A DNA stretch of 63,490 nucleotides, the filler included, from Hausera hauseri (lineage: Eukaryota), in assembly GCA_046269625.1 (NCBI GenBank). It is 11 parts of 11 records of this genome, joined end to end, with 100 filler letters (N's around TTAATTAATTAA, not from the genome) between each part and the next. Parts side by side here need not be neighbours in the genome. Positions count along the whole stretch, not along the records: positions 53,402 to 63,490 come from JBJURY010241071.1; 10 more parts are not named here. The stretch is one strand, 5' to 3'. Of this stretch, positions 1-63,490 are shown piece after piece. The translations under genes and the position numbers were made by a program. Below the pieces are notes generated by a model. That model saw only the letters and a list, made by a program, of their open reading frames with translations. It was not told the origin of the DNA and ran no database searches. Position 1 is the stretch's first letter. The number at the start of each line of letters is the position of its first letter.

Positions 1-41
1 TGAGCCTATTGAATTAATCATTCAAGTGGATTTGGATCGGG

Positions 42-1086: not shown

Positions 1087-1088
1087 TT

Positions 1089-1106
1089 TGGTGACCCTAG
1101 CAGGAC
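1089..1106 (+). promoter_or_regulatory. Primer-binding site (TGGTGACCCTAGCAGGAC; tRNA-Arg- or tRNA-Trp-like)
   Basis: TGG start a few nt after the LTR end and upstream of gag. The tRNA identity is inferred and ambiguous. Confidence 0.6.
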
Positions 1107-1254
1107 AGTTTGTGCCTCGCTAGACTTGACTCTTGAGAAACCAATTAACGACATACCGGCGAATAGAGCCATCTACATCAAGTAATTGATATAATAGGAA
1201 TCGAACTTTAAATTTTGGGGTTATAAGTCTATAGAAGGGAATAAGTAAATTGAA

Positions 1255-14263: not shown

Positions 14264-14488
14264 ACCATAATTTACAAATTAATTTTACGAAATGTCACTT
14301 CTTCCAAAAGCGTATTAACTTTCTCGGACACATCATTTCAACAAATGGTCATTCTCCTCAACCAAAACGCTTTGAAGCTCTCAAAAGTATACAACTACCT
14401 CGAACAACAACAGAAATGAGGAGCTTTTTGGGAACTTTGCACTTCTTTCACAAGTATGTGCCGAACTGCTCTGAACTTACCGCACCAT
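14264..14488 (+). mobile_element. Gypsy RT C-terminal fragment, inverted relative to the adjacent element
   Basis: KCHFFQKRINFLGHIIS...MRSFLGTLHFFHKYVPNCSELTAP. Similar but not identical to the reverse complement of ~15507-15730. Confidence 0.85.
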
Positions 14489-31550: not shown

Positions 31551-34500
31551 CAGATAAAGGCATAAAAACGCTAAGGATAGAAAATTTGGAGAAGTGTGGA
31601 TACCAGTAGACGAAAATATTCCACCGAAAACGGAGATAATAATTTATGCACAAGATCAGCAAGATGATAAACAACCAGTATATTTTGAACCCGAGGAAAC
31701 CCTAAATCCAAATATAATGCTCAGTATCGTATTGACAAGAGTACACTTCGGACGTGTGCCGACCACAATAGCGAATAATGCACCAACTTCCGTCAAGCTT
31801 CATGCTTATACCACTCTAGGAGACACGTATAGAGTGTCGTCAATAATTATCGAATAAAAACCTTATAAGTATGCTGAATTTTCACCTCATGTCGAAACTA
31901 ACTTCTATCCTGAATCTTATTGTTGATTCTATGATTTACTATGCCGCTACAAATCGGTTATCGCTAAGGACGAAGAAGACATAGGCAGAGCAAAAGCTTT
32001 GAATTTGACTATTCCACTCAAGAAAAAGCCAGATTAGAACGAAGAGATAGACTTGGAGGACCAGAAGATCCCAAAATGGTACCCTCTACCACGTTCACTT
32101 AGACCAGAAATAACGAAGGAAGTCAAAAGAATTCTAAAGGCCGATATAATCCGGCCCAGCTACAGATCTTGGTATTCGCCAATCCTCATGGTTAAAAAGA
32201 AAGGTACCACAAAACACCGATTTTGTATTGATTAGAGCCTTAAATAATCTTATGATGAAAGATTCTTTCCCATTACCATCGGTAAAAGAGGCTTTGGATA
32301 GGCTCTCAGGAGCAAAATGGTTTACCACCCTGGACTTACAATCCGGATATTGGCAAGTGGAGATTGAGGACGAAGCCCGTTATAAGACAGCATTCAAAAC
32401 TCACGATGGTGTTTACGAATTTTATATCATGCCGTTCGGTATTACTACCGGGCCAGCCATATTTACGAGAATGATGAACAAAATGTTAATGGGACTAGAT
32501 CACGCTTTTGCGTACTTAGATGACGTAATGATAGCGTAAAGACAGAAGAGGAACACTTAAAGGACATTGAACATACGCTAATGCGTTTAGAACAAGCCGG
32601 ACTGAAATTAAATCCAAAGAAATACAAATGGGCTCAAAATGCAGTATCCTACCTTGGCCATATAGTTGGAGAAGGAGGATCGAAACCGGATAAATCGTTA
32701 TTAAACAAAATATCGGATTGCATGGAACCATAAAACCAGAAAGAGCTAAGACACTGGTTAGGACTCTGCGGATATTACGCGACCTACGTACCGGATAATT
32801 CAAAAATTAATGCACCTTTATATCATCTGCTTAAAAATGGAATTAAATGGAAATGGACAGACGTCGAACAAAAAGCCTTCGATGAGATGAAGAAGATATT
32901 AACAAGTGAACCTGTTTTACGTTACCCAGACTTTAACTTACCATTTATAATCAAGACAGATGCCAGTAAAGAAGGCATTGGATATGAATTAGCACAGAAG
33001 AGAGGACAAAGAGTTAGAACACCCGATTGCATATGGAGGACGTTCTTTGAAGAAAGCCGAGAAAAATTATTCTGTTACCAAATTAGAAACCCTAGCTGTA
33101 AAAAAAGCACTTCGACATTTTAACGTTTACGTGTACGGGCAGAAAATTATAATTGTCACCGATCACAAGGCCGTTACGACCTTAAAAGGCCGGGCAAATA
33201 ACCCGACATGCAGACTAAATAAGTGGATCGAAGAAATCTCCAGATATAATATCGAATTCCAGTATAAGCCAGAAAATAAGCATGTAGATGCTGATGCGTT
33301 ATCAAGATTAAAGATTAAAACGAGCGCAATTACTGTAATGAAGAAAAGCCAACTCGAAAAGATAATAGATCGTCAACGCGCCTTGACAATGGATAAAGCG
33401 ATTAAAATTTCGACAGAGAGAAGGGATAAAGTCATCCAACAGGTTATAGAATTTGTTAAAAAGGATGTCATACCGAAGGGACGACAGTTAAAGAAACATT
33501 TATACAGACATGGATATAAATACTGCGTCCTAAATGATGAAAACGAAGGAGACATATTATATTACGAACGGAAAGGAAAGAAACTGATAGTTATCCCAAA
33601 AAGTTTACGAACCGAAGTGTTGATGTCAGAACATGACTCATACTTAGCCAGACACATGTCCTAAAAGAAAACACTAGAAAGAATAATGAAAAAATACTTT
33701 TGGCCTAGTATCTATATCGATGTAAAGAATTGGGTAAGCGCTTGTGAAATATGTGCAACTAAACAAAAGAAGTCGAAAATTTACATGGCCGAACTGAAAC
33801 CAATCAATGTGCCAGATAGGCCTATGCAAGCCATGTCAATGGATGTCGTAAAACCTCTTCCTACGACCCACAAGAACAATAAGTACATTTTGACTTGTAT
33901 TGATCAATTAACTCATTTTATCGAATTAGTAGCGCTAATTGATCAAAGAGCAGAAACTTTAGCAGAAGCAGTAGTAAGAAGAATCATTTGTCGATATGGA
34001 CCACCAGATCAAATATTAACGGATCGAGGAAGAAACTTTACCAGTAAACTTTTCGAGATTATCAAAATATTCGAAATCGAACGATTAACAACTACCGCAT
34101 ATTACCCTCAGTGTAATGGAATGGTTGAGCGAATAAATGCAACCGTTATACGAATACCATCAACAGTGGTAGCTAAACACCAAAAAGATTAAGACAAATT
34201 TCTTGAAGGGACTCAATTGGCTATCAATACCACACCACATCCTGCGACGGGATTTACACCATTTTTTATGATGTACGGACGTGAAGCTGTGTTGCCCACA
34301 GATTTAGGAATGACGCCATACGCAGCTAGTCTCGAAGATTTAGAACAGAACTTTGAAAAAGTATTGCAGACACGATTACAAAAATGTTGGGAAATCGCCA
34401 AGGAATTATCTCAAGAATACCAAGAACAATTTAAAATGCAATATGATAAGAAAGTGAAACCACATGATTTGGAACCCGGAAGCTGGGTTTATGTACATTA

Positions 34501-34700
34501 TCCAGTAGCCAAAAAGGCACCTCGTTGAAATTGACCCGCACTGGCAGAGAACCGTATGAAGTTACCCGAGTTACGCCAACCACGGTATATGTCAACAAAA
34601 ACGGAAAGGAAGAAGTTGTGTCAGTACAAAGAGCTGTCAAGACAGAAATACGGCCCAACAAACGTTATAATTTACGCCAACGTGAGGTAAAACTTCCTCA
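31551..34700 (+). mobile_element. pol: Ty3/Gypsy pol (RT-RNase H-integrase), frameshifted
   Basis: LDLQSGYWQV, KTAF, MPFG, YLDD; TDASKEGIG, TDHKA, ADALSR; H...H/C..C zinc finger; MDVVKPLP, TDRGRNF, NGMVERIN. Confidence 0.95.
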
Positions 34701-35775
34701 ATAATTGCTAGACCAATATCATACGTTCAGATAGTTTTGGCATTATCGTTGATTGCATCCTATATTCCAAGAATACAGACGCAATGGTGACATGATGAAT
34801 CTACGCTAAGAGATATATAGGGAATTCGGAAGTATGGATCAAAATCTGAAGCAACTAAAACAGAAAAGAAACCAACAGTTAAAAAAATTCAAAGACAGGA
34901 AGATACTAAATTGTTACAATCAATGACAATTCATTATTACTCGCCAAACGCAGTATGTGTCGGATTTAAGGCTTGGAGACCACACCACTATTTCGGAAGA
35001 TTTCAAATAGGTTTATATGGTGTAACAACAAAAGAAGCGAAGAATTGTGATTTTGAACCTGGAGAAAATATGCAGTGTCGCGACATAGATTTTGGACGTA
35101 CTTATAACCTTACCTATCGCCTGTACTTACCAGACTCAACCGAAGTTTATATTGAAGTAAAACCACGATCTCAATTAGTCATTCCTGCATGGAACAGACA
35201 CCATGGAGTAAAGCCCAGCGAAATGCTACGATCTACCAACCCGGATGTAAGACTATTAGATAAGAATATCCAGAGAATCTCTGTAAATAAGCAAAAACAA
35301 TGCATTCAAGTAGATACTCAAATAGGATTAACTCTTAGCCAAGAAATTAGTATCGTTTTCGAAGCGGTAAACGGAAAAACCCCGAAAATAAATTACTGTT
35401 CTGTACATACCGGTGTGCAACGCCCACGTTGTAAGTTACCAGTAAACCAAGAATTCAAAATAAAACTCGACTTATATGAAATAAGGCCGAATAAACCGAC
35501 CAAACATTTGCAGACTTACTATCCGAAAAATAGAATATGGAAAATCACAGTAGACATGCCTAATAAAAGGCCAACCACTCGAGTTAGTGCCATTACGATA
35601 CCCGTTACGTCAGGCAGTGTGCCTAAAAGAGAATTAGAGAGCATCCCTATTAAATATTCGGCATATCGATCTAAAATTGTGTTCCTTGTGGAAGAGAAGC
35701 AAAATTACGATATACACGTAAGTTGTCGAACAACACATGATAATCAAATTGTAACATTATTTAAAAATACTTATC
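34701..35775 (+). pseudogene. Post-integrase ORF: signal-peptide-like start plus tandem Cys-containing beta-rich (FN3-like) domains, truncated by contig end
   Basis: IVLALSLIASYI hydrophobic stretch in frame with the open frame from 34911. Pattern similarity to 55688-57084. Confidence 0.6.
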
Positions 35776-40195: not shown

Positions 40196-41820
40196 CAGGT
40201 AGGCAAGTATTTCTCCCAAGTCGTTTGAGCCCATAACTTTTATTTTCTGATGACTAATCGCAAGTAATGGCTTAATTTAAAGCTGACACTATGGCCTAAC
40301 TAATAAAAAAGATTATCAAATTTCATTGGATAAAACCAAATTGGTCATTTTTCAAGAAAATTTACTGGAATTAAAAAAATGAACAACAAATAAACATTGA
40401 TAAAATGATCATGTCTGGTTTCAACACTGCGTCCGTCTCGCTCAATGCTAACTCGCATTCGGCGCACAAAATCCTGTACTGTTTTATCGATCATCTCCGG
40501 AGAGATTTGCTGGATTTGGTTGACGATTTCCTCACGAAGGTCGTTCAGATTGACAAAGGCTATCGGTATAAACTTTGCCCCTGCAAAAATAATCCATCCA
40601 AGTGAGATCAGGGCGATATGGGGGCATTGGATAGGACCCGGATGTGCCTCAGAGCCGATCCAGTGATCTGCGAAGGTTTGATCGAGATAGCGCACTTCCA
40701 GTGCTTTGTGAGAGGGTGTTCCATCTTGCATAAACATGATATTGTGGAAATTTGGAAGCTGTTGCATTGCCAGAGTGACGTTGTTCTCGAGCATTTGTTT
40801 GTACCAACGAGTGTTGATTCCTTTTTCTTTCGGGAATGCGGGGTCATAAAGCAAAAAGAACGGTCTGATAATTCCATGCGTACCAATTCTGAGCCAGACG
40901 GTCACTTTCGGGGAATGGAGAGGCTCCTCTGCGTACCAGTGTGCATTGGTGTCACTCCAACAGCGAAAGTTGTGCCGATTCACCCCGCTGTGGAGATGAA
41001 AACGAGCCTCGTCGGAGAACATCAGATTTCCGAGAAGATTGAGATTATCTTCGAGACGCTGAAGCATGTAACAAGCAAAATTAACACTGGTTTCGTAGTC
41101 GGTTGGGAGCGATTCTTGGAGCTTTTAAGGGTGAAATTTTGTTTCAAAATCCTTCCAACATTTCTGGGTAAAATTTCAACTCCACTGGCGACAAATTAAA
41201 TTGTGATTTTCCACAAATATTTTACGGGTATGCTCGATTTTTTCTTCACTTCGGACTTATCATATATTGTTCATTGCTGCAAGCTAGCATCATGAAAATT
41301 TTTGTTCCACTTCTGAATTGTCTTATAGTAAGGAACATGCGCATGCTTTGCATTCTCTTTGTGGACTCTAACAGCAAATGTGGTGTATTCACGCTTCGAG
41401 TTAACCCAACAGTAATAAAAACGAACTTTTTCATGGTTTGAATACGGCATCTTAACAAAAAAAATATAAAATTAGTCATCAACCAAATCCAGCAAATCTC
41501 ACCGGAGATGATCGATAAAGCAGTTCAGGATTTTGTGCACTGCCTATGAATGCGTATTGAGAGAAATGGACGCAGTGTTAAAACAAGATAAGATCATTTT
41601 AGAAATGCTTATTTGTTCATTTTTTAATTACAGTAAATTTTCTTGAAAAAATGACTAATTTTTTAAAAGGCTATAACTTTGGTTTCCCCATGAAATTTTA
41701 ATCTTTTATTAGTTAGGCCATAGTGTCAGCTTTAAAATAAGCCATTACTTGCGATACGTCATCAGAAAATAAAAATGTTATGGGCTCAAACGACTTGGAA
41801 GAAATACTTGCACTACCCTG
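40196..41820 (-). mobile_element. Tc1/mariner-superfamily (DD41D/rosa-like) transposon with ~330-bp TIRs; transposase frameshifted
   Basis: TA|CAGGTAGGCAAGTATTTC... and ...GAAATACTTGCACTACCCTG ends. TIRs at ~40196-40525 and ~41476-41820. Motifs FSDEARFHL, HSPKVTVW, MQDG, and frameshifted PDLTWMDYF. Confidence 0.9.
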
Positions 41821-45459: not shown

Positions 45460-45603
45460 TTTACTGAACCTTGGCGAGATGATATTAATCCATCAGGTTA
45501 TACAGTACCCAGAGATGAAACAGAAAATCATTTTAAAGAAATGATGCATCGAAATAGACAAAATATACATAAAAATCAGCAAAATTCACAAACAATTTGT
45601 TAG
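45460..45603 (+). CDS. 3' end of an unknown ORF converging on viral unit A
   Basis: Open from the contig start: FTEPWRDDINPSGYTVPRDETENHFKEMMHRNRQ...TIC*. Confidence 0.35.
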   Translation, partial: FTEPWRDDINPSGYTVPRDETENHFKEMMHRNRQNIHKNQQNSQTIC

Positions 45604-46059
45604 TGTTAGAAATCATATACGCTAAAAATTTATTTTTATTTATATAAAAAATAAAATTTATTCTCGGGAAAAACAAGAGTCTCTGATAGCCCAGATCATA
45701 CTTTATAACAAATGCAGAAATTTCAGTTCGCACTCTGGGCACGGTGTGAGGGGTGAATATGGGAACGTACACGAATCCGTAAATTTAAAAATAAAAAGTC
45801 AAAAAATCTGTAACCATATTAGCACACAACAAAGAACAAAGAAACAAAGACAAATTTTAACACACAATATTATGATGATTTAGAAATACAACGAATATTA
45901 CAGAATTTGCGTGAAAATGTGTTATTTAAATAAATGTTTAGTTCAACTTTTTATCTTTTCCCTCTATTTATAACTTAATAAAAAATATAAAAACCAAATA
46001 AAAACGAAACAAAGAAATAATAAACAAAGACATTTTTATACATACTAAAATTTATTTTA

Positions 46060-46754
46060 CTACACATAGCTTTCCATAGGTTCTGTATCTGCATCGCTAA
46101 TCCCACAGCTATCGGCATCACTGCTGTCCTCTGCAAGTTTCAAGATAGGCTTGTAACCGTTAGGTGGGTCAGGCTCTGGCACCCGCTCCTCACCTAACGT
46201 ATACTCAACAGCGTTCAGGGCTACTCTCGGGAGTGGAGAGCCGGCTGGACGCTGAACTATTCTCGGATCGAGACACTTACCTAAAAATAATAAAATACAA
46301 AATAAAATAATTAAATACCCTGTTGCCGTTTACCTTTTAGAGCAAAACAAATCAAACAATCGTTTCCCCAATCATAGATCGGAAACGGATTGTGTGAACA
46401 CAAAATCTCTTGTCTGTGCAAATTGTCACAGATATCTTCAGCACTACGTCGAGGTGCGGAATACACATCACGCACAGGGTCACCATCGTCGTCGCTGGCA
46501 AATACTCGGAGAAGACTGCAGAGATGGATCGGATCCTTTATCGAATATACAGTTTGCATTTTCTCATACAGATGAAGAATTTGTTGCATCATGTGCAGGT
46601 TATGTATGCATAAACGGTTGACATGCTGGAGATCGGCTGTCTCCTCTGGTGGGATATTATAGCGGATTTCAACGTTACGAACAAGGTCGCACAAGCTGTC
46701 GATACTATACTGCAATTTAAGCAACTTCGAAAGGAATTCACCGTGTTCACCCAT
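46060..46754 (-). CDS. Viral accessory gene ORF2, copy A: two exons (46754-46319, 46280-46060), 38-nt GT-AG intron; Cys/His-rich
   Basis: Spliced product ...LCSHNPFPIYDWGNDCLICFALKGKRQQG|KCLDPRIVQRPAGSP...TEPMESYV* is colinear with copy B. Confidence 0.75.
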
Positions 46755-46847
46755 TAATAATAAAATAAGACTAGAACAACGAAATATTTATTCACTGTAC
46801 AATCTATTTTTAGCAACACAAATGAGCACCAATCAGATAAAAATTAA

Positions 46848-48370
46848 TCACAAAGTAATGTGGTCATCACGACCCCACGTGTCCTCAATATCGTCAAACG
46901 TAACATTAGCTGGTGCACTGTTGTACTCAGTAGGAACATTTCCAGTATTCAAATAATTAATTTGACTATCTCTACTAATCAACCCCGCCCGCCAAGCATC
47001 TCTTTCTGCAAACGGTATATGGCAGATTTCGCTACACATATGATATGGGCTTAAAATTTCACGATGATAAAGTGGTCTGTAATTTCTAATGTTATCATAA
47101 TTGATAGGAGTATTAAGATCATCATCGTCGTAACTAGGAGAATGAAACAATTCGTCCTGGGAATTTATAGATAAAGATTGATGAGGCGGGATAACTACAG
47201 GAATACCAGTTGGCAAACTACTAATAGGTAATGTGTCACTACTTTCCATAGGAATAACTTGAGGAGTGCTCTGCATCAATGGAGTACCAACGACTTCTAC
47301 TTGTGGTCGCACATATTCACTTGCAAGTTTTCTAAAATCAATTCTATTATCAATCAAAAACCTATCCCTACTTTCATCCGTTTGATACAACATGAAATCG
47401 CCGAACTCATAAAGTAAACAGCGTTTCATGCAGGCCTCTTTCTGACTTAAATCCATCCTTCGAGGCCAGAAGGAGGATTGCGAGTTGTATGTAAAGATTA
47501 CGGGGATACTCGAGGGAACGACAACACTTTTATAGAGTCCCCTAATACTTCGATTGTCATGTATATTATTGCACTGTACAATGCTTAAAAATATGTCAGG
47601 GCAAACTTCCGAAAAACCCACATCATCGAAAATTATTATGTCGTAGTTTGGAGACCACTCTGATGGGGTATCATGCAGGCTATGTAAAATCAACGGGTTC
47701 TTCCCGTGACTTAGGGCGAAACAAGTTTTCCCTATATTGCTCGAACCGAATAATAGGGCTGTATTAACTCCGTTCTCCAAGCGAAACTTAATGGGTGGAA
47801 TAGTAAATATGTATTGCGGATTTGTTTCTATCTTAGGCTTGAACTTATTTGCACAGTATGTCTGCAGTAATTTGTGCCGTGTAACAAACTCCGCACGGTC
47901 TCCCTCTTTCATTATGTTCATTGCTTCCGAGACCGTGGGAGCATCATCAAATAGCCTATACAAGGCTTTCCTACTGTTATTATCTTTGTGCAAATCTATG
48001 GGTGGAGTCCCTAGCTGCATCACGAATGCGTTGTTATTCTTCTCGTGATACTTGTAGACCGCAAAAACGTTACTGCGGAACGGGATGACGTAGAGAAAAT
48101 CAAACAATGTTTTGAACCTGTGTAACCTCATGGGGTTACGCATATAAAACAGATAATGAAGGTGGTGGAAGCCACTTGGTGATGTGTCTTCGACCACCTT
48201 GAGATAAAATTTTACAGACAACGAAATACGAATAAAATTAATCAATCATTACAAGATCATCACCATCGTTAATTTTTGTCACGGCCATAAAATGCCGAAA
48301 TGTCGCGCCTTCTGGTGGCTATACCAACTCCGAAATCTTATCGGGAAATCTCTGTTGTAAAGCATCAGTG
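46848..48370 (-). pseudogene. rep: CRESS-DNA-virus-type Rep (HUH endonuclease + SF3 helicase), copy A, 5'-truncated
   Basis: RCR motif II EDTSPSGFHHLHYL, motif III YKYHEK, Walker A GSSNIGKT, Walker B IIFDD, motif C FTYN. Stop and frameshift at 48240-48325; similarity to copy B ends at 48370. Confidence 0.9.
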
Positions 48371-49623
48371 ACAATGTAACGATTACAATACCAATTAACA
48401 TGACATTCAGTATTCAATTCCAAAATGATTTATACAAATGGAATGAATTAAAAACTCCATATTTCCAACCATACATATGGACAAGAGAAATAAATGATTT
48501 AATGACATATTATGAGTTTTGGAGGCCTAAACATATGAAAGTGAAATTTATGAATGCACAACCAACATATCAAACAGGCACAGTGGACTTTAAAGGAATA
48601 AATCCAGAATGCAGATTACAATTTTTCGTGGACTATAAAAATGTATTTTACAATTACGAAAACAGACCTAATACAGAAATAACAGGTCAAACAGCATTAC
48701 TTGCTTATTGGAATGAAGGATTATTAAAAAATGATAATTATTTATTAGGTTGGAGTACAAGTACAACAAATATTACAACACCAGCGTGGTGCCCAACACG
48801 TACATTACCAATATTAACAGATAATAGAGGAAATCAACCAACAGTTAGGAAATATTATGAACATTTACCATTTCAAAGTGGTGTAACAGAAATTATTGCT
48901 AATGAACCAGACTTATTTACATACGAATACACACCAACTCATGATTATTGGAAACAAACACATTTAAGTGCAATGTTATGGAATTACGTTAAAACTAATA
49001 ATGGAAAAGTCGATAATTCACAATTTGGAACATTAACAGATGATAAAATTCCTTGGATTGCAGACAGATTCGACTACTTACATACAGAAATAATCCAACC
49101 GAATTGGAATACATGTAGTAATTGGTTCAACATAGCTAAGGATGAAATTGTTAGTAAATGCCATTATGATATTAGATTAGATGATAAAACGTACAAAAAT
49201 TGGAAATTAAATTATCATTATGAAACTAGTAGTTTAGGAAAAACTTACGAATATTGGTGGAGGGATACTGATTATATACAAGAAGAAAAACCTATGCCGG
49301 GATTATACTTTAAAATTAGTCCACTTGCAGGAATAGATAACAATGCATGTGCACAAACATGTCAAATGAATGTAACAATAGATTATACATTTGAATTTAC
49401 AAGAAATCAAATAAATGAAATGAGAAGACAAGCTTATATAATGAGTGCGAAAGACACGCAAATACCACTTAAAAGGAAATACTATAAAGCTTGGTTTCCT
49501 GTGTGCCAACCAGTTACAACATTTATCTCTAAAAAGAATAATGAAGGTCACATTACAAGTATAAAAGAAGTATGGGATAAAAAGGACATGCTCAGTAACA
49601 TGTTCAGTTATTACAACGTGTAA
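48371..49623 (+). CDS. Parvovirus-type capsid protein (VP), 5'-truncated, otherwise open (407-aa ORF from 48400)
   Basis: TPYFQPYIWTREINDLMTYYEFWRPKHMKVKFMN...RLQFFVD and KPMPGLYFKISP...QMNVTIDYTFE parallel the parvoviral VP jelly-roll segments (..FRPK.....N..Q.F.D; PPP.I.IK; V.I.WE). Confidence 0.75.
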
Positions 49624-49625
49624 AA

Positions 49626-50243
49626 ATGAATTACAAACTTTTTGAAGACGAAGCGAGAAAAAATGTACATTTCATTATCTCCACTTGTGTTTATGACTTA
49701 CCTGACGATTGTCCAATTGATATGTTACACAATAAATCCAATCTTCCAAAACTTATCAAAAGCATTATTTCAAGCAACGGTGGCAAAGTTAATACAATAC
49801 AATTACTTGGTCCCAGAAATTGCGGCAAATCATTCTTCATCAATTTACTAACAGCTAATAAAAATGTTGGTGCCATTCATAACATGTTTTCGCGCAGTAA
49901 TTTTTGGTGTCAAGATTTAATTGGGAAAGATATTTATGTTGGAGAAGAAATAATGCTTGATCAATTTAATGCTTAATATTTTCTAATGTTAATGGAAGGC
50001 AGTCAATTGACTCGTGCAGAAAATAAATTTCAACATAGTTCGAAGTTACCGAAGAAACCTATGATTATTGCAAGTAACGAGTGTCCGTTTCGTCATGTTA
50101 GTAGTATGTATGATGCGTTCATTGTCCGAAGATTATTGATTACTTTTATAAAACCAATTCAATTCAGTATGCCTATCAATTATGATGATATAGAAGTGCA
50201 GAGGATTTTACAGAGTTTGCGGGATAATGTTTTATTTAAATAA
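49626..50243 (+). pseudogene. Stand-alone parvovirus NS1-type SF3 helicase/ATPase (~205 codons, one premature stop at 49974-49976)
   Basis: KVNTIQLLGPRNCGKS (Walker A), NFWCQD, YVGEE (Walker B), LMEG...ENK, PMIIASN (motif C), AFIVRR. Own ATG 2 nt after the VP stop; no HUH domain; its stop overlaps AATAAA. Confidence 0.85.
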
Positions 50244-50553
50244 ATTTTTTTACTACTTTGCTATGTTTTGGTTTTTTTTTTTTCGTTTTTGGGTGTCCGG
50301 AGCAGTGAAACTATGGGGCAGTGTAGTTAGTGGGGTTATTCTTTTAAAGAATCATTCTAATTCAAACCTAGCTAGTGTGAACGAGCTTACGCAGTGGTCT
50401 GGGCACGGAGTGAGGGTGTAGATGGGCACGTACTCGAATCCGCAACTTTGGTTACAAAAATTCATAAAAAATCTGTTACCATGGAAACGTAAACAAAGAC
50501 ATACGAAACAAAGAACAAAAAACACAAAGACAATTTTAAGTTTGAAATTTTTA

Positions 50554-51214
50554 TTAGACAAAGGAAACCATAGGCTCAGTGTCATCAGTCTCGTTTTCAG
50601 CTTCTTCATCAATTACATCAGAAACCACATACGATCGCGTGGAACACACAGGCCCAGCAACCACCTCATAGCGGTCAACATCAAGGGCTATCCGGGGGCG
50701 TGGAGAGCCGACTGGACGCTGTACTATTTGGGGGTCCAACCACTTTCCTAAAAATAATAAAATAAAAATCGAAAAATAAAATACCTTGTTCCCTCTTACC
50801 TCTCAAGGCAAAACAAATTAAACAGTCATTCCCCCAATCGTAAATAGGAAAGGGGTTATGACTACATAAAATTTCTTGGCGATAGAGACTGTCGCAGATA
50901 TCTTCCGCCACTCGAGGATTACACGAATACACGTCACAAACACCACCATCAGATTCGTCAGCAACACGTAATAGAGAACATAAATGCAAAGGATCCTCAA
51001 TTTGAAATTTTCCTTGCATTTTTTCATATAAAACGAGAATATCGTGCATGAGATTCAAATTATGCAAACACAAACGCGATATGTGTTGCATATCTGTGAT
51101 CTCTTCAGGAGGAAGGTTATACCGTATCTCGACATTCCTCACATGATCACACAAACTGTCAATCGAATATTGTAATTTCAACAATTTGGATAAAAATTCA
51201 GAATTTATAGACAT
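50554..51214 (-). CDS. Viral accessory gene ORF2, copy B: two exons (51214-50785, 50747-50554), 37-nt GT-AG intron
   Basis: ...DCLICFALRGKREQG|KWLDPQIVQRPVGSP...TEPMVSFV*. Intron position is the same as in copy A. Confidence 0.75.
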
Positions 51215-51310
51215 AATGAAATACTAAGTCAAAACAACAAAACTCAGAACTATTTATTACAACTGTACACACATAAAAATAAACACACATAATGAGCATC
51301 CAATAGCAAT

Positions 51311-52933
51311 TTACATAGTATGATGATCATCTTGTCCCCAATCAAAATCTATGTCCGTATAACGCACATATGCAGGTGCAGTATCAACTTCAATTGGAGT
51401 TGCGTCTGTATTGAGATAGTCCACTGGTGCAGGATCAATATAGCACCTTTCCGAGCACACATGAAAAGGTGACAGTACTTGGTTGTGAAAAGTTGGACGA
51501 TAATTTACTACATTAGCTAAAACAGGTGGGCTAACATCATCGAACGACGGTAAATGGAAAAGCTCGTCATCTCGGTAATCCCCACCAACATTAACACTTA
51601 ACGACTGATTATTTGGGATAACTACAGGAATACCACTAGGTAAACTATCTACAACAGGAATAGGAACAGAAATTACAGGGGGCACAACATACTGATCTGC
51701 AAGTCTACGAAAATCTACCTTATTCTCCGTTAAAAATCTATCACGACTCTCGCCCGTCCTGTACAGCATGAAATCTCCGAACTCATGTAAGAGGCAACGT
51801 TTCAGACACGCCTCCTTCTGGGATAAGTCCATCCTTCGAGGCCAAAAGGATGACTGCGAGTTGTACGTAAATATAACTGGGACAGACGACGGGACAACTA
51901 CGGATTTGTACAGGCCTCTTATTGATCGGTTTTCATGAACATGATTGCATTGGACTATTGCAAGAAATATATCGGGACAAACGTCGCTAAACCCTACGTC
52001 GTCGAATATAATTAAATCATATGAGGACGACCACTCTGCAGGTGTGTCGTGTAAACTGTGTAATATTAAAGGGTTCTTGCCGTAGGAGAGAGCATAGCAG
52101 GTTTTGCCTATGTTGCTGCTCCCGAACAACAAGGCAGTATTAACACCCTGATCTAACCTAAAATTAATAGGTGGTATTGTGAAAATATAATTAGTATTAA
52201 CAATTATATTTGGCTTAAATTTTTATGCGCAATAGCTTTGTAATAACTTATGCCGAGTCACGAACTCCGCTCGGTCTCCTTCTTTCATAATATTCATGGC
52301 CTCCGAGACCGAGGGAGCGTCGTCAAATAATCTGTATAGGGCTTTTCTACTATTGTTATCCCTATTAATGTCTATGGGGGGATTACCGAGCTGCATACAA
52401 AACGTTGAAGAATTTACATTTTTATCATGATATTTATATACTGCATAAATATCGCTACGAAAAGGTATAACGTACAAAAAATTGAACAAAGTCTTAAAAC
52501 AATGCAACCGCATCGGATTTCGCATGTAAAATAAAAAGTGAAGGTGGTGGAAACCAGATGGAGAAGTATCCTCCACCACCTTCAGATAAAACTTATAAAG
52601 CAACGACAAGCGAATATAATTACTCATAAGCATGGAAATGTCAATATTATCGTCATATTTCAGGACGGCCATATAATGCCGGAATGTTGCACCTTCTGGT
52701 GGCTGTATTAATTCTTCAATCTTATCCGGAAATCTGGTCTGCAAAGCATGCGTGTAATCATCATTTGAAGGAAACAGGCGAGTATAAACACCATTTCTGG
52801 CATTATGCACTGTGAAATTTTCTCGATACCCCTTTGGAAAAAAAATATTAATATTATTAATAATAAAATAAAAAAATACTTGTTGGTTGCGTTCTTCACG
52901 GCTCATTATCTGACTCTGGGACGATGACGACAT
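51311..52933 (-). pseudogene. rep: CRESS-type Rep, copy B, full length; 1-nt frameshift at ~52225; putative 48-nt intron 52832-52879
   Basis: HHLHFL, YKYHDK, GSSNIGKT, IIFDD, FTYN. Restoring one base joins ORFs 52223-52933 and 51311-52132 colinearly with copy A. Confidence 0.9.
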
Positions 52934-53084
52934 GTAGCAGAAATATGAGACAGTGTATAAATTATTACGAATTTATACAATATCTCATATATTGCATAAC
53001 ACATCATAATACACTGATAAATTATGACGAATGAATAATTGTCCTTTGTATTTAAATATATTTGAAAATCATTCTACTCCTTTT

Positions 53085-53151
53085 TGAGAATGAGCAACCA
53101 ATAATATTAGCTACTATATATAGCTTAATTATTATTGGTTGCTCATTCTCA
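53085..53151. promoter_or_regulatory. Perfect 22-bp inverted repeat (hairpin) upstream of Rep, with a CCAAT in each arm and a central TATATA
   Basis: TGAGAATGAGCAACCAATAATA (53085-53106) pairs with 53130-53151. Inner AGCTA/TAGCT stem. A second hairpin lies at ~53205-53243. Confidence 0.8.
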
Positions 53152-53401
53152 TTTACACATATTCTTTTCTTATGTTTCTAAAAAAAGTATATAGTAGTGC
53201 AGATATTATTTACTATCTACTTACAATAGTAAGTAGTAAATAATTAATAAAAAATTATTATTTACATCGGGTGCATTTTTGATACGGTGAAACAAAGCTA
53301 TNNNNNNNNNNNNNNNNNNNNNNNNNNNNNNNNNNNNNNNNNNNNTTAATTAATTAANNNNNNNNNNNNNNNNNNNNNNNNNNNNNNNNNNNNNNNNNNN
53401 N

Positions 53402-55687
53402 AGCCAAAGACAGCATTCTCCATCGATGAAGGGTTATGGGAGTTTAACAGAATGCCATTCGGATTGAAGAATGGGCCGTCAACATTTCAGAGAGGGACAG
53501 AACTCCTACTGTTAGGCGTCCCGCATGCCATGGTATATATTGACGACGTAATAATAGCGTCACCAAACTTTGAACAACATTTAAAGAACCTACAGAATCT
53601 CTTTGATAGATGCGAAATAATGGGCCTAAAGGTGAATCCAAAAATGTTCATTTGCTCAAGCTGAAGTAGATTTCCTGGGACACCGAGTGGACAGACATAG
53701 CGTCAGACCTCAAGATAAATTATTGGGAAAAATAAGAGACTTTCCAAAACCAAGTACATTTAAATAACTACGTCGGTTCCTAGGTCTGGCAAATTATTAC
53801 CGAAGATTTATAAAGAACTTCAGTCGGATTGCGAAGCCTTTATATGAACTATGAAGAGAAGATCTAGAAACGTTACTATTGACAAGTGAATGCCAAAAAG
53901 CTTTTGAATATTTAAAGGATAGACTGTTAACAGCTCTAATATTGATGTATCCTGATATGATTAAGCCATTCATCTTGGCAACAGACGCAAGCGATTATGG
54001 AATAGGAGCAGTGTTGTCCCAAAAAGGCAAAGATGGAAAAGAAAACCCAGTGGCCTACGCCTCAAGAAAGCTCAACAAACATCAAAAGAAATATGCAGTG
54101 ATTGAAAAAGAACTATTGGCAGTAATATTTGCCTTGGAGGTATCTTTGCCATATATTAGCCAAAATAAACCTCTCTTAATCTATACGGACCATAGACTGC
54201 TTCAATGGCTAAAGCAGCATGAGAATCCAAATAGTAGATTGCTACGATGGGCTCTAAAGTTACAGCCTTATACTCTGAATTTCCAATATAAACCTGGATC
54301 GCGAAACGCAAATGCGGATTACTTATCCAGAATGCCCAACAGACCAGAAACAAAGAAAGCAGTAGTGGCAGCAGTATGGAGCATGGACGGATCTGTAGAG
54401 AAAATAAGGGCAAATCAAAATAAAAACATGGAAATAAGAGCCATCAGGAAGTACATGGAAAACAAAACATTACCGACTGGCAAAGAACCAGCCCGTCACC
54501 TAGCCTGATTCAGTGAAGCTTACGAAGAAAAAAGGATTCCTATACTTTATTCATCAAAACGAACCTACCTTAGTAATTCCAAAGAAAAACAGAGCAGTTT
54601 TGTTAACCCAATACCATGACGGATTACTTGGTGGACACCAATCAGCAAGTAAGACGCTTAATAAATTGAAACAAAAATATTTCTGGCCAACGATAATGAA
54701 AGATGTACAGGAATGGTGCGACAGTTGTAAATTATGTGCTACCCGGAAGAACACGGGATCAAAATACAAAGCACCTCTCAAAGTATGGGACAATACCCCA
54801 GCGCCATTTGAGTTTAATGTAGATGGACTTAACAGGACCATTACCGTTAACACGGAATGGAAATAGATATATTTTAGTCTTTATTCACTATTTTACTCGG
54901 TGGGTTGTTGCCTTAACAATGGCTGATATGAAAGCAGATACAATCCCTGAGAAATTCGTAGAGAACATAGTATTTAATTATGAAGCCCCGAGAATTCTCT
55001 TAACTGACCAAGCATCGAATTTAACCGGAACCATAATGCAATACATATACGATATTTTGAAGACGTTGAATCTACAATCCACACCCGGACATCCAGAAAA
55101 TAATGGGATGGTCGAAAGGTATATTGGAGACTTAAAAGGGAAATTGCAGACGGTGGTAAATACTAGACAGGACGATTGGAATGAATATATTAATGCGTGT
55201 GTTTTTGTAAATTGGACATCGGTCCATGAAGCTACTAAAGAAACACCCTTCTACTTGATGCATTTAAGGGACGCGAGACTACCAATAGATTTGGATTTTA
55301 ACGTGAAACCCACCTCACATGTAATGGAGGTAAAAGAATACAAACAGTTAATGCAGGAACGCCTCCAATTAGCATATAAAACAATTGGAGTAATCAAAAA
55401 CACTATAAATTAAAATATAAGAAGTATTATTATAAGAAGACTAAACAGCCAATAATAAAAAGGGTAAGACATCTAAGTTGGATAGACCATATAAGGGACC
55501 ATATGAAGTAGAAAAAGTGGAACTACCAAACATTTGTTTGAAGAAAAATAATACTTCCTTTAAAGTCCTCATCAATAAATGTAAACCCGCTGCTAAAGAG
55601 ATTGAAGTAAGAAAAAGCGAAAAAGAGCTAGTACAAAGTATTAGTGAGAAAGTAATCGAAGTGGACTCAACAAGTAGACTTGGCTAG
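53402..55687 (+). mobile_element. pol: Ty3/Gypsy pol (RT-RNase H-integrase), frameshifted
   Basis: KTAF, MPFGLKNGPSTFQR, VYIDD; TDASDYGIGAVL, EKELLAV, TDH; H..GGH/C..C; DLTGPLP, TDQASN, NGMVER. Confidence 0.95.
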
Positions 55688-57084
55688 ATAAAAAACTGTC
55701 TACTATTAATAATCATTTTATTATTCCCTGGAGTGCTAGAACAAATGACTAATCAGGAAATTGAACAGGCTAAGATAAGACACGCAACAGCTATAAAAGA
55801 TATGTTAATCAAAAGTTTACAATACTGTATAACGTATTCAAGAAAAGGTCAGAAAAACATGATTTGGAGCACACCTAAGCAAATGCCCCCAGAATATTAA
55901 ATAGGTATACAAGTTATACCCTGGAATGCTAATAGAAGACATCCCAACGATTGACAATTTGACTGTTTACTCCATCCAGAAATTAATGAAACAATATGTG
56001 TAATGGGAAACTCGGGTGTCCACAATATATATCTTACACTTGTTAAGAAAATAAGAGATTATTATAAGAGTCAATACATCAAACTTTACAAATCAATAAA
56101 AATTCCTACAAGACACCAAATGAACGAAACTTTATTAGATGAAATAATACTTAACCAATTAATCGCAAGGTCAATAGGATTTAAGAGCGGAAGAAGTTGT
56201 ATTGAAATCATAACGATGATAGAGTTAGAATAAATATGTTGGATAACTATAGTGATAAAAGAAACCACTACCCAGACAACAACAAAATGTAGAATTACAG
56301 TTGAACACCAACAAGTTTGTTGTAATGTGACACGAGAAAAAATATATAGTATGAACTATACTTTATCCCGAAAAAAATACGGTAAGCTATTAAATAGCTT
56401 AAAACGAGGAGGCCAGCAATGTATATAAGGTATAAAAATCAAAAAGAGTATGATGAAATAAATAAGGAAATAAAACAAGGGGTCACGACACTGGCTGTGC
56501 ACTCTTCGGCTGATAGGAAGGAGATGACAGTTTTTATTAAATCCTATGCTTCTTATTACCGTCAAAAACGTTCTATATGGGATAATGTAACAATTATAGC
56601 ATCCCCTACCGCATTAATTATTTCTATAAAACCAGATCGCGATTTTGTGAAAGTAAAATTCAGTTGTAAGAAACGAGGTGCAGTGGTAGCAAAAGGAGTC
56701 ATAACTCCCGATGATCTGGTAGTACCATGCGCGGCTTTAGACCCCGCTACAAGATACACGGTCATCTTACAGTTATTGGATGACAATGATAATATAACAT
56801 CCACTAAGGTAATATCAGCAGTTACAAAGAAAAACAATAAAATGGGATTTTCATATAAGGTGAATACAGTTAGTTATAAGATAACGAACAAACCCTCACG
56901 AGCGATATATAAACATTCTCGTTGAGAGATGATGTTGATTGAGTCATTAGTTCCAGTAGCGTTTATAGTTATGATAGGAATATTAATTAAAATAATACGG
57001 TTACGATGCAAGAGTAGAAGGAGCTGGGTGCGAATCAATATGCTTGATCTAACAAATCCGTTAGATACGGACAACCCCAGCTGA
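55688..57084 (+). pseudogene. Post-integrase type-I membrane protein ORF: signal peptide, three beta-rich domains (last FN3-like), RQKR site, TM helix
   Basis: CLLLIIILLFPGVL; RQKR; LDPATRYTVILQ; LVPVAFIVMIGILIKII followed by RLRCKSRR. Broken by stops and one frameshift. Confidence 0.65.
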
Positions 57085-57090
57085 CAATTA

Positions 57091-58430
57091 ATGGGAAGTA
57101 CTACAACTGGTGTAGCCCTAAAGTCAGAGATAACCACACGTCATCCGGTTAACTCCTTCTGTAATTTTTATTTAAATAAAACCACAACGATTACCCAAGT
57201 TATTTATATGATAACCGTTGTGTTATATGTAAGTAGTACATCTATATCATCATTGACTATATTCTTTGCAGTACAGCCACTACCTTCCATCAAATTCAAA
57301 CAGTCAGTCGTTCCAAACATTGGCATAGTAATGCCAAAAATCATGTTATAAACGCCAACCCGGCAAATCAGTATTACGTTGTGCACAATGATTATCTAAT
57401 CAGTCTCAATTATCCTCAAACTCAACAAATCCCCAATAATTTAGAAGGATACAGTATGGCCAACCGTTCTCTCGATCTCCCACAATTAACGAAAGCTACA
57501 TCTTTCTTCTTAACAGATATCCTAATATTTCCTGAACGTTTCCATTCAGCAAATTTATTTTGCATCACAGACCAATTCCAAATAAAAACAACAGATAAGA
57601 AAACGTCAATAAAAGGTGACCTGATTAACCTGGATGCCAAACATAGTCTTGCATTTGACCACTTGTTTCCTCAGAACAACTTTTTCAAATTGAGATCTAG
57701 TACAAACCGGATAATCTTTGCTATCGAAGTAATTAAGAATGAAAAATTTTACCCCAGTCTGCCACCAGGAAAGTGTTTCAATTTACCCGATGGAAGGTAG
57801 TGTTAAGGATTGTGTTAAATATAAGAATACATCTTTCTGTCGAATAGACAAAATAATGGATACTGACATAGTCATAGCTGCCGTCAACCTGGCCTATGAC
57901 CAATGGAATCAGCTGCAACCTATTGAAGCATCAATTATGAATCTACATGGTGACACTTTATTCCATGGAATAATAACCCAAGGCAACGAATAAACAACTT
58001 TGACACACATATAACAGGCCTCTCCGAAGGAAACATTAATAAACAACTGGATCCCATAGACTTTTAACGAAAAGTAACTGAAATTATCACTGATAAAGTG
58101 TTGATCGGAGCCGATGTCATCGAGATGGTCGTGAACCATTTCAAATACCCCTCAGGCGGATAGCCGGAGTTCGCGATATACTATATCACGAAGAGGTTAT
58201 CCCCAAATATCAATTGTCAATCGGGTCCTTTAAAGAACTAACCCGTAAGTTCTACGAAACGAAGGGTTTCCCTCTTCGCAGCACTGCTCTAGTACAGTGC
58301 TACCAAGCTATATACCAACAGCTTAAATGGTCAGACGAATTGATAACGCAAAGTACGGCTACCGACGGGTGGCGAACAGCACCAACCACGTCACTGTGGT
58401 CGAAAAACAAAGTTTCAAATGGATGAAACT
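57091..58430 (+). pseudogene. Further decayed coding region of unknown function inside the LTR element
   Basis: Overlapping ORF fragments 57091-57351, 57381-57800, 57739-57993 and 58214-58426. Hydrophobic stretch VIYMITVVLYV. Confidence 0.4.
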
Positions 58431-58561
58431 ATAATAGTCGATGAGGAAGTCTATGAACCAGAAGCCATATGATACAAATCTCGCACTACAGACAAATTCA
58501 TTCACATGCCCCTATCGTTCGATCAATAAATTGGAACAATTTCTTCGACCCGCCATCGAAT

Positions 58562-59240
58562 TGTGTGAAAGTTGACATTTCAACGTAGTGAAAAACATTT
58601 ACGTGAATATTTGACATTTAACACGTACATTTTTAAACGTGACTTGACATTTGGAGAAAAACATTTTAAATGTATATTGCTCTTTAAGGCCGCAGCGACA
58701 TTATTATGTGTAGCATGTAAATTATTTCATTGATTAGTGTATTCACCTGGAATATAGTGTGTAATGTAGAATACTATATAAACTAGTGAAATTTTACGAC
58801 AAGACAGAAAGTTTTGTGAACGTCTTTTGATTCTAACTTTACGCCTTAACGTGAGTATTATTGTTTTGTCACTGTGATTACTATTGCGTATTGATTATAT
58901 GTATTATTGAAATTCGTTATTTGTTGTTATCGAAGTATATATGTAATCAAGTAACATAAATAACTAATAAATAACGTGGCAACTTTGGTCGACCAGGTCA
59001 AACCTACCTGACGACCGCCAAAGTAATAATAAATAACAATATAGAAAAGTAAACAGTAGCAAGTAATTATTAAGTAACGTCACGAACCCCCATACACATT
59101 ACCTACTGACAGATAGGTAAAGTTTGGATATTATTTCTCTGCAAGTTCATCTCGCGTCTAAATAAAAGTGAATTTATTCTCCTCATTAATTAACCCTTAT
59201 TATTGAAGTCTCTCCCAACGTAATTAGTGAGGAGTGAACA
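58562..59240 (+). repeat. Putative LTR (left boundary uncertain, 58562 or ~58707)
   Basis: Non-coding; ACTATATAAAC at ~58773 as in the contig-1 LTR; AATAAA at 59161; ends ...GAACA 3 nt before the PBS. Confidence 0.55.
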
Positions 59241-59243
59241 AAC

Positions 59244-59262
59244 TGGTGTTGTGACCCGGGAT
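59244..59262 (+). promoter_or_regulatory. Primer-binding site, tRNA-His-like (TGGTGTTGTGACCCGGGAT)
   Basis: Resembles the complement of the tRNA-His 3' end (TGGTGCCGTGAC...). Lies between the LTR end and gag. Confidence 0.65.
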
Positions 59263-59387
59263 CTTATTTAAGGACCTTTACATTATAAATAGCAAAATTA
59301 CGACAAGAAAAGGAATGTTATACCAACAAGGAATAAAACGAACCGTACGGATTAGAATATTTACAAAATTTAAGTGAAGAAGAATCA

Positions 59388-60530
59388 ATGGCAAACAATA
59401 ATATAGAACAGGTGATTCAGCCGAAGGCTGACCTCACCCTACCGATGAAGAAATTTTCGGGAAAAGAAGACAATATGAAGTATATTCCAGAAGTTTTGGA
59501 TGGGGCGATAAACAAAGAGTAGAGGGATTACCTCTCCACCTAAAAGGAACGGCTCTCATGAATATATTTTCAAATGCCGGATGACGACAAGAAGGACTGA
59601 AAAGGAATTAAAGAAAAACTGCCCCAGAAGTTTTTAATAGATCCCTCGGGAAAGGGGAGAATTGAAGAGTTTATAAGAAGGAGGCAACGGAAAGACGAAA
59701 CAGTCCAAGACTTTGTCTATGCATTGGAAAAGCTAGCGGCTAGAGCACATCCCGACGTTATAATAAAAAACAATGCATTGTTAGCTCAATTCCAGTATGG
59801 AATGGAAGAAAGGTTGAGGACAATAATCTCTCAAGCAGACCCAGCTACATTTCAAGAAGCAATAAGGAAGGCACGAAAAGCCGAACGAGATGCGGAACTA
59901 TGTAGGTGGAATAAGTCCAAAAGTAGAAATAATAACTACGATAAAAGAAGAAACAATGGTACACAATAGTATCAACCATACGAAAAGAATAGAAGCCCTT
60001 CACAAACGTCAGCTACAGAAGCTGAGTCAGATGTAGAAAAGAAAGTAAGATTCAATTTGAGGAACGATGGAGAAAAGACAATTTATAAAAAGAAATCCAA
60101 AAAGGATGGAAGAGCGTTACCCAACAAAGACTCCGAAGGAATATTGAACTGTTTTAACTGTAATAAATACGGACATATAGCGAAATCATGTAGATCACGT
60201 AGAGGAGATCTCTCGAAATCAAGTAATAAGAATAAACAACAAAAGAAAGATTACACATCAGCCACGTCAGATGAATCGTCCGATAAAGAATATGAAACGG
60301 AGGATAGTGTTAGGGAACATGAAGTTAAGAGAAAGAATAAGAAAAAAGAAAGTGTTAATTATATAAACTATACACTATGTCAAAGCATGAAGAAACAATT
60401 AGAAATGGAGTTGAAAGATTACAAGACACATCAGCAAAGACTAAAAGAAAGTAGTATTTATATGATAGGGGATCAACCGGAGAAAAAGGTATCCCATCAA
60501 AGAAGAAGAAAGGTAATAAAAAATAATTGA
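59388..60530 (+). pseudogene. gag: Ty3/Gypsy gag, degraded
   Basis: KKFSGKED, LPLHLKGTA, RRQRKDETVQDFVYALEKLA, PATFQEAI, CFNCNKYGHIAKSC. Confidence 0.9.
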
Positions 60531-60639
60531 CATAGATGTTGGATGAAGAGAAACATCAACAGAGAGGGAAGCGGTAGGAAAGGAAAAGAAAAGAGGAAGA
60601 AAGAAAAGTAACCTGAGTATACCCTCGTTTGGTCAGGAT

Positions 60640-61785
60640 GAAGCTCAAACGAAACCAATATTTGATGAAACTATATTAGAACAAGTAATAAAGAACTCAG
60701 GTGTAGATCTAGACGAAGAAGACGATATTATCCAAGCAGTAATGACTATTGACCCCAATAATATATGTGATGTAGATAAAACGACTACTACGATACTGAA
60801 GGTAATTACCAATAAAGTGCCAGTAGAAAGGATAAACGAAATATTACCTCAGTTGGTTTTATTGGCCCAAGATATTAGCACGGTGAGAGAGATAACAAGG
60901 ACCGTATTGGCCAAGGCCGCTGAAGATGAGAAAGGAAGAAATGAAACTATGAGAGAAACAGTAAGAGAAGGGAACTAAGACATGAGATTTATACGAATGA
61001 ACGAAATAGACGACATACAAGCTTTACGAGAAAAGATAGAAGAGTTGGAACCATTCTATCAAGGAAGTACTTATGGATTAAATTATAACGGAAGAACGCT
61101 ATATAGGTATGATAGGTTATTGAGAATTGGATGTAGAAAAGAGAACTATAACTCAATATTTATAACCGAGATACATCCAGAAGCGAGAGCGCAGGCAACG
61201 ATGGATAATATCCTAAGCAAAATGGAACCATAGGAAGTAGAAGGATCGCCCGTAGGCGATATTCAAGATGTTACGGTCCAAACAGAAGCTAAAAGAACAG
61301 GTAGACCAAAAGGAACAAAGATTAGTGATATTTGCGACAAGAAAGACAAAAACGAATAAATAGTAAAACGTTTATTATTGGAAGGAACAAACGTTACACC
61401 TGAATCTGTGGCCTTAGATCCCTTATTATAAACCGTACTGGCCAAATTACATACATCATTCGCCTCCTTTCACATGCAAGTAATAATTCCAGATGGGCTA
61501 TTCCAAACCTTACGTAATAATATATTACGGATTATTAGGCAATTTTATGAGAATCTAGACGAAGAACGGATAAACGAATTACATGAATTAGATATTTTGG
61601 AAAAGATGTTCGCAACGGGTATTACACGAGAGAAAGCGCAAACTGCCATATCCTACCTTCTATATAAAATAATAGTAATCAACCATGAAACTTAAAATTT
61701 AGAACAGATCGAACGAAATATAAAGACAGCTGTCAAAATTTTAAAAGATACGTTTGGAAATTGGATCCATTGTAGAGGTGGTTGG
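60640..61785 (+). pseudogene. Unknown helical coding region between gag and the env-like ORF
   Basis: ORFs starting at 60742, 60982, 61474, 61786 and 62365 are all in one frame and separated only by stops. Confidence 0.55.
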
Positions 61786-61890
61786 TTGACCAGTCTAATA
61801 ACCAACATAACAAGAACAGGAGAACGAAAAAGATTAATAGACACGCCGATTTTGACTCAATCAAACACTTCTAGACCAGGTATAACCGGT

Positions 61891-62664
61891 ATGTCAATAA
61901 TGGAGATCCTACAAATCCTCTTAATAACGTCATTAATAATGCCAAAAGCCGTAGGTACAGTCGCATACCACTGCTCCAAGCCTAGCGAAGGACAGAAGTA
62001 CTCTTTAGTTGATTTTGAGAAATGTCCAAAAGCCGACCCAAAACAGTTAACAACAACAAGTGGCCTCGCATATTGGGTTTATCAGGAATCTGAATTTATA
62101 AAGGTGAAAGTTAGGGAATGTTACGTCAAGAGATCATTTTTCCTGTTTCATTGTGCCTATTATTCTGGAAATTTGGCCATCATCGAGCCCACAACACCTT
62201 TTGAACCAATAATAATATCCCGAGCGGAATGTCAGGATGTCTTTAAGATTGGTACAGTAACTATTCACGATGCACCCATACTTGCCGTTAGAAATAGAAT
62301 AAAGTACACCAGAATCTTCAGAGCAGGAAGAATAGATAAAACAATGGAAGGCACATGTAAATGAGTGGATTACGACGTTGGAGGTACCATCGCATCTAGA
62401 ACGGTAGCAATTGAGGATTTCCAGGTTCAATTGAAAGAATACGAAGTACTATTTGACTCACAAACGAAATTAATGACAACATTGTTGAAGGAAGGAAAGT
62501 TCAACAAGACAGTAAGTAAAACGGCTGAGAAGGACACAGCTACGTATAAAGAAGGAACAAAGGAAGTTAAGATGACGGAAGTAGCTACTATTGTGTATTC
62601 AGAAAACCTAGAGGAAATGATGCGATTTAAAATCACTGGAGTGGTAAGTAAATGTACAGTATGA
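61891..62664 (+). pseudogene. env: Env-like glycoprotein (class III, gB/chuvirus-type), N-terminal part with internal deletions
   Basis: Signal-like MEILQILLITSLIMPKAVG, then AYHC...YSLVDFEKC...VYQ...VRECYV...FHCAY...ISRAEC...G.CK. Confidence 0.7.
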
Positions 62665-62905
62665 CTGATGATAACAATATCAAATATGATCAGGTAAAAG
62701 TAAAATCAAAGCACAATCAAATAACTAGCATTAAGCAACTGGCACTGAAGTCACGAAAAGAAAAGTACAGGCAAAAGTTGGTGACGAACTTACATCATCT
62801 AGATCCCGTAGATGAATATCATGGACAAATATATAACGAACGACCATTGGTGAATCCCTCAGTCCTCGATACGTAGTACATACGGGACTGTACCCTATAC
62901 ATCAA

Positions 62906-63409
62906 GTGCAACAGATGAAACAAAGTTTTGACGAAAATCTGACACCTTATAAATGTGAACCTACATATAAAACGGATGATAAAATCGAACGGCAATCACC
63001 CATAAGACCAGAGATAGAGATAGAGGTGAATGGATATCCATTGATGGTTCCGTTAGATACTGGATCCACGACAACAATAATGGGAAGGAGCCAAATGACA
63101 AAAAATTTAAAAAGGAAGCTAAGAAGACCGACAACTACGTTAATAAATGTAGGAGCATTCGGTACAGAAGAGGAAATTAAAATGGTCATAAATGCCGAGA
63201 TTAAGATTGGTAAACAAATTTTAAAGCACATAATAAGAATAGCAGACAACCTGACTAATGAAATCCTAATTGGGTGCGATATATTAAGTCAATTGGAAAA
63301 CACTTACATAGATGTGAGAACAGGTCAACTTAAGACTTTCATTGAAGATCAAAATGGAGGGATGGTTTCATTAACAAAAGATATCATATCCCACCACGAT
63401 CCAAGATAG
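62906..63409 (+). pseudogene. Retropepsin (aspartic protease), start of pol
   Basis: IEVNGYPLMVPLDTGS...ILIGCDIL. Confidence 0.92.
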
Positions 63410-63490
63410 TGGTGTCTGGAACAGTAAAAAGTAAATCATTACCTGAGGTAATTCACTTTGAACCATTCCCACAAGTTATGGAAAAATACG

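Follow-up and report, generated by a model that had tools for sequence, protein, structure and literature searches.

The last of the joined contigs in a 63,490-nt stretch of Hausera hauseri DNA (hereafter the window) carries what is very probably a decayed copy from a Ty3/gypsy family of high copy number and compact, Burro-type layout, in whose intact members Env would be freed from a common polyprotein by signal peptidase. The copy has an N-terminal env fragment between gag and the protease, preceded in the same frame by a region, X, that on the evidence of profile comparison and modelling ends in a Bcl-2-fold domain.

Layout and decay of the element

On its + strand the contig reads, in order, RT-RNase H-integrase, decayed extra frames, a non-coding stretch, PBS, gag, X, env fragment and protease (Table 1). 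Pfam and frame checks agreed with the original prediction on the PBS-gag-X-env-protease order, its strand and its positions. Two further points of that prediction, a frame shared by X and the glycoprotein and the lack of an LTR between the parts, also held: the X-env frame (60547-62664) has 7 stops in 706 codons, where the two alternative frames have 76 and 54, and no long repeat was found within 59244-63490. The few stops indicate that the frame is coding-derived, yet it is broken. Since the contig stops at 63490, RT, RNase H and integrase of the decayed copy fall beyond the window.

Table 1. Features of the element-bearing contig, in positions of the window
Feature	Position	Strand	Basis or remark
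Contig of the element	53402-63490		last of the joined contigs (N spacers)
RT-RNase H-integrase of upstream element	53402-55585	+	Pfam
Decayed extra frames	55688-58426	+	after upstream integrase
Decayed frame with signal-like and transmembrane segments	55688-57010	+	hydropathy; after upstream integrase
Non-coding stretch at LTR position	58580-59243	+	all frames closed; directly 5' of PBS
PBS, tRNA-His(GUG) type	59244-59261	+	10 of first 12 bases match tRNA-His(GUG) 3' end
gag	59388-60530	+	broken by stops: 6 in 380 codons
gag, capsid-like region	about 59667-59882	+	Ty3_capsid, E 0.0033
gag, single CCHC knuckle	60147-60194	+	zf-CCHC, E 8e-5
X, first part: charged linker and helical region	60547-60978	+	colinear with P0002 from residue 378
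X, probable ubiquitin-like domain	60979-61190	+	aligns to P0002 473-547
X, predicted Bcl-2-fold domain	61360-61800	+	PF00452, E 7e-4, below curated cut-off
Hydrophobic segment, predicted signal peptide of env	61891-61956	+	sole hydrophobic segment of X-env frame
env, N-terminal fragment, Monjiviricetes-type (chuvirus-like) fusion glycoprotein	61957-62655	+	PF24664, one stop
Retropepsin-type aspartic protease (LDTGS)	62969-63331	+	PF13975, E 1.6e-7

The Ty3/gypsy features present in the decayed copy are a tRNA PBS, a gag with capsid and CCHC regions, and a retropepsin. The tRNA-His(GUG) 3' end used for the PBS comparison is the one listed in the supplement of PMC13524379. We infer the LTR from its position, since no second copy of the 58580-59243 stretch occurs in the window; neither the LTR edges nor a polypurine tract could be located. 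The gag resembles the N-terminus of P0002, the closest relative, in two stretches (51-69% identity), and the best stored matches of the protease are the proteases of the env-pol relatives P0006 and P0060. Multiple protease-like domains in one polyprotein were seen in P0060, with eight D[TS]G motifs, and in P0007.

Other copies were represented by a contig set (X1), which may be the source data set and thus not independent: 22,585 of its contigs align to the contig, most of them with 80-95% likeness, and gag, X, env and protease all have depth. The two mismatched PBS positions differ from nearly all other copies aligned in X1. Beyond 62656, the point at which env is cut short, 30 X1 contigs continue in different sequence. 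Together, the alignment depth and these diverging contigs suggest a high-copy family in which the env loss is specific to the decayed copy or to a subset of copies.

The upstream element is probably a head-to-tail neighbour of the same clade. Ranked by likeness to its integrase core, P0062 and five env-pol relatives come first (1-6 of 65), and the upstream element grouped with these relatives at a support of 0.835 in a FastTree phylogeny of 41 sequences, which comprised unnamed relatives with no named references and left out P0025 and 16 of the 56 eligible proteins. We read this grouping, together with the shared post-integrase layout, as indicating that the contig probably holds two head-to-tail members of one clade. 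In P0006, P0017, P0060 and P0062 the frame runs on past integrase into a signal-like segment, which is followed by an ectodomain and a transmembrane segment; the upstream element shows the same layout. When the upstream frame at 55688-57010 was compared with the post-integrase protein of these four relatives, the motif profile was not significant (best E 1.8, at the expected place). A fibronectin-III reading of the post-integrase protein found no Pfam or PDB support.

Ahead of the LTR position lies a frameshifted coding-like stretch (57237-58426), which by eye we take to resemble a REX4/ISG20-type exonuclease; an exonuclease reading of 57733-58426 was likewise without Pfam or PDB support.

Several other elements were seen elsewhere in the window. 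Another gypsy gag (CCHC), related to that of P0002, lies at 18-3895, with a RING-finger frame (PF00097, E 5.5e-5) about 1.1 kb upstream that is reminiscent of Burro cargo. A third, decayed gypsy element occupies 14272-17700 on the minus strand, and another gypsy pol lies at 31594-35775, where a 318-codon frame after integrase had no Pfam match. The frames at 20640-22962 resemble those of a protein-primed DNA polymerase of the Polinton type; their first part has no Pfam match. Long inverted repeats, 82% alike over 350 nt, flank a mariner-like transposase fragment at 40198-41817. Finally, two diverged tandem units at 45460-53301, about 71% alike and with a spacing of about 4.4 kb, contain Rep/helicase-like and capsid-like frames, one of which matches PPV_E1_C (E 3e-4), and look like an endogenous ssDNA virus.

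The X region and the envelope fragment

X spans about 450 codons (60547-61890). It had been described as some 380 codons of unknown sequence; its presence between gag and env stood, but it proved longer and has a recognisable C-terminal domain. The first part of X is frameshifted relative to gag in the decayed copy and matched no Pfam family. The segment that follows is labelled ubiquitin-like after the aligned residues of P0002, which match Pfam ubiquitin weakly (E 0.031); taken alone, the segment of the decayed copy had no ubiquitin match in PDB.

The Bcl-2 assignment draws on sequence profiles and on structure. PF00452 was matched by all nine members of an alignment of Bcl-2-like regions, picked for likeness, with every Pfam score below the curated cut-off. 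A profile of the nine retrieved Bcl-2 family proteins in all of the best 60 PDB rows (best E 2e-5), and the only PDB match of the decayed copy's region alone was BOK (E 0.5). The fold was modelled for the domain of P0002, which is 45% identical to that of the decayed copy (pLDDT 76.6; best Z 12.7, rmsd 3.4, 131 aligned). In a wide structure search with this model the best 35 rows were Bcl-2 folds and the first unrelated row had a Z of 5.5; the rows listed by Foldseek were all Bcl-2 family, none with E < 0.001. A single-sequence model of the decayed copy's own region, built without an alignment, was poor (pLDDT 42.7). No Bcl-2 match was found before env in relatives P0004, P0006, P0007 and P0017.

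The domain shares with the viral and cellular Bcl-2 proteins CNP058, BHRF1, Bfl-1 and Bcl-xL a common fold, a BH2-like W..GGW motif and a downstream hydrophobic segment. It differs from them in sequence (8-14% identity), in the loss of the BH1 NWGR motif and in being embedded in a retroelement polyprotein. As NWGR is not conserved, canonical BH3 binding is uncertain, and any Bcl-2 activity of the domain is putative.

The glycoprotein claim also stood in part. Fusogen homology was clear, with a match to PF24664 (Monjiviricetes_fusion) at E 1.1e-18 (67 bits versus a cut-off of 27), but the match covers only profile positions 3-195 of 653, and the fragment, about 230 residues past the signal peptide, amounts to about one third of env. 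Hydropathy revealed no transmembrane anchor past the signal-like segment of the decayed copy, and the C-terminal part of env is absent; in relatives P0003, P0006, P0007 and P0017, a transmembrane segment lies between env and protease. In the alignment with P0002, env is interrupted near 62480 by a gap of about 29 residues, and the homology stops near 62655. Consistent with a shortened env, the AYHC motif lies 364 codons from the protease motif in the decayed copy versus about 680-910 in 10 relatives. A full-env relative had no sequence match in PDB; the putative gB-like class III fold of the ectodomain is taken by analogy from the available part of PMC13524379. In 31 of the 33 sequences scored, the conserved Y/F-D/H-C motif likewise follows a hydrophobic segment.

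Relatives and alternative explanations

A HMMER search over 1.84 billion protein representatives found 58 relatives, of which 23 were scanned for domains; the relatives bore no informative protein names, and no named Burro sequence was among the matches. P0002 is stop-free and carries gag (CCHC), X and env colinear in one ORF, with 36% identity over 701 aa. Nine of the 23 scanned relatives have env and then protease in one ORF, four of these nine also with RT, RNase H and integrase, and a gag marker precedes env in four relatives of the same scan. P0025 reads CCHC-env-PR-RT-RH-IN within 2146 aa, and in both P0007 and P0025 env is in frame with gag and with pol. The PR-RT-RH-IN order is kept in P0006, P0017, P0025 and P0030 as well as in the upstream neighbour. 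The proposed gag-X-env-pol order is found among the relatives, in one reading frame, and, given this order and the fusogen homology, neither a nested insertion nor a glycoprotein without fusogen relatives describes the locus. Word-based protein searches gave no matches, either for the env fragment or for the Bcl-2-like region, and a related-locus search in metagenome and viral contigs gave no relatives. With RT/RNase H as the query, no close relative bearing a name was found (best match 45% identical over 84% of the query).

In the preferred reading, the internal hydrophobic segment is likely a signal peptide at which signal peptidase releases Env in intact members. The main rival, which we consider unlikely, keeps the gene order but has Env made separately from a spliced or subgenomic RNA with an ordinary N-terminal signal peptide, so that the shared frame serves Gag-Pol read-through only. 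Insect errantiviruses as a rule splice their env, a Met at 61891 stands just ahead of the hydrophobic segment in the decayed copy, and the database proteins P0009, P0010, P0011 and P0013 start at that segment. However, these proteins may have been shortened by gene calling, P0002 and P0003 have no Met at the segment, which fits an internal signal, and the continuous frames of P0007 and P0025 also count against a separate Env.

Less probable still is a family-wide loss of most of env, with a short secreted or non-functional fragment kept. The one third of env that is present runs into the protease linker, and the closest relative also terminates inside env, at residue 1130. Yet P0002 extends about 60 residues past the break of the decayed copy, other relatives have a full env, and the 30 diverging X1 contigs carry other sequence past the break. 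A single event in which a chuvirus glycoprotein gene inserted, as an endogenous viral element, into an ordinary gypsy element can be set aside as highly improbable, for although stand-alone 650-aa PF24664 members are among the matches (P0042, P0047, P0055 and P0059), these score E 2e-5 or worse versus E 1e-98 to 1e-30 for retroelement polyproteins, X1 depth over env is similar to that over gag, and the colinearity of P0002 across the X-env junction refutes it.

Known systems and the proposed processing

The novelty that the original prediction implied did not survive: env before pol in one polyprotein is odd, has been known since 2019 and was later surveyed across phyla. Planarian Burro (GYPSM1) elements, giant gypsy elements treated in a section of Arkhipova and Yushenova 2019 (PMC6431247, citing Grohme 2018 and Jurka 2007), have the order Gag-Ubl-BCL2-Env-PR in one polyprotein. 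The decayed element resembles them, as described there, in its CCHC Gag, probable Ubl-like domain, BCL2-like domain, mononegavirus-fusion-related env and protease, in the same order and, in relatives, in frame, and in high copy number. The BCL2-like domain directly before env is a Burro-like trait that is present here; the Ubi2/SUMO-like domain that precedes BCL2 in Burro-like elements has as its possible counterpart the weak ubiquitin match, in P0002 only. A third such trait, gag, env and pol in one ORF, is found in relatives, where gag-X and env-pol continuity are seen, and is broken by stops and frameshifts in the decayed copy. The element differs from Burro/GYPSM1 in being decayed, with env cut short, and far more compact, with one CCHC knuckle and about 840 codons separating the start of gag from the env signal. 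Burro sensu stricto has, according to the same section of PMC6431247, a giant ORF1 of about 4,900 aa with BIR, MATH, SMC and ankyrin cargo, and Burro1 (Lee et al. 2026) is reported in PMC13465017 to carry BIR-RING cargo; a giant ORF1 with such cargo is absent from the decayed element, and no Pfam match to BIR, MATH, SMC or ankyrin was found in the short stretch between gag and env.

A second known group comprises the GAG-ENV-POL errantiviruses with HSV/gB-type ENV, reported in the available part of Chary and Hayashi (eLife 2026, PMC13524379) from Platyhelminthes (9 rows), Bryozoa (10 rows) and Nematoda. Like the decayed copy, these are Ty3/gypsy elements with a chuvirus-related env between gag and pol; unlike it, they are intact, whereas the decayed copy lacks the C-terminal part of env and the anchor seen in its relatives. 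The 17 other elements given there as His-GUG-primed all come from outside Platyhelminthes, Bryozoa and Nematoda, and a word search of that part for an in-frame polyprotein or Burro found no passage. It also cites non-canonical nematode ERVs (Sacco et al. 2022, PMID 35550022), in which env precedes pol after an RNA-virus glycoprotein was captured.

We propose that, in intact members, Gag, the Bcl-2-fold domain, the chuvirus-like glycoprotein and Pol would be made as one polyprotein. The internal hydrophobic segment would send Env into the ER lumen and be cut by signal peptidase, the transmembrane anchor of Env would return the chain to the cytosol, and there the protease would detach itself, along with RT and integrase, from the tail of Env. 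By way of the cleaved signal segment the Bcl-2-like domain would remain attached to the membrane, and it would likely dampen host cell death. The decayed copy itself is incapable of this, given its stops and frameshifts and the loss of most of env.

A bolder reading, which we advance tentatively and at less than even odds, is that signal peptidase makes two cuts in the polyprotein, much as in an enveloped RNA virus. Env would be freed, a membrane-anchored Bcl-2 mimic would be left on Gag-X, and Pol would be packaged tethered to the Env tail and not as Gag-Pol. A post-integrase signal would free a second type I membrane protein, which could serve in attachment or as an immune decoy. No such protein after integrase was seen in the Burro section of PMC6431247. 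A literature search for signal-peptidase processing of in-frame env in gypsy LTR polyproteins found none; papers or supplements beyond it may describe the cleavage or the second membrane protein.

The decayed copy is a poor starting point for questions of mechanism. What it adds is a family that is compact, His-primed and high in copy number, together with structural support of an independent kind for the Bcl-2 assignment. The interest of the family lies in how Pol gets packaged when Env separates it from Gag, in a possible block of apoptosis by the Bcl-2-like domain, and in the role of the second membrane protein.
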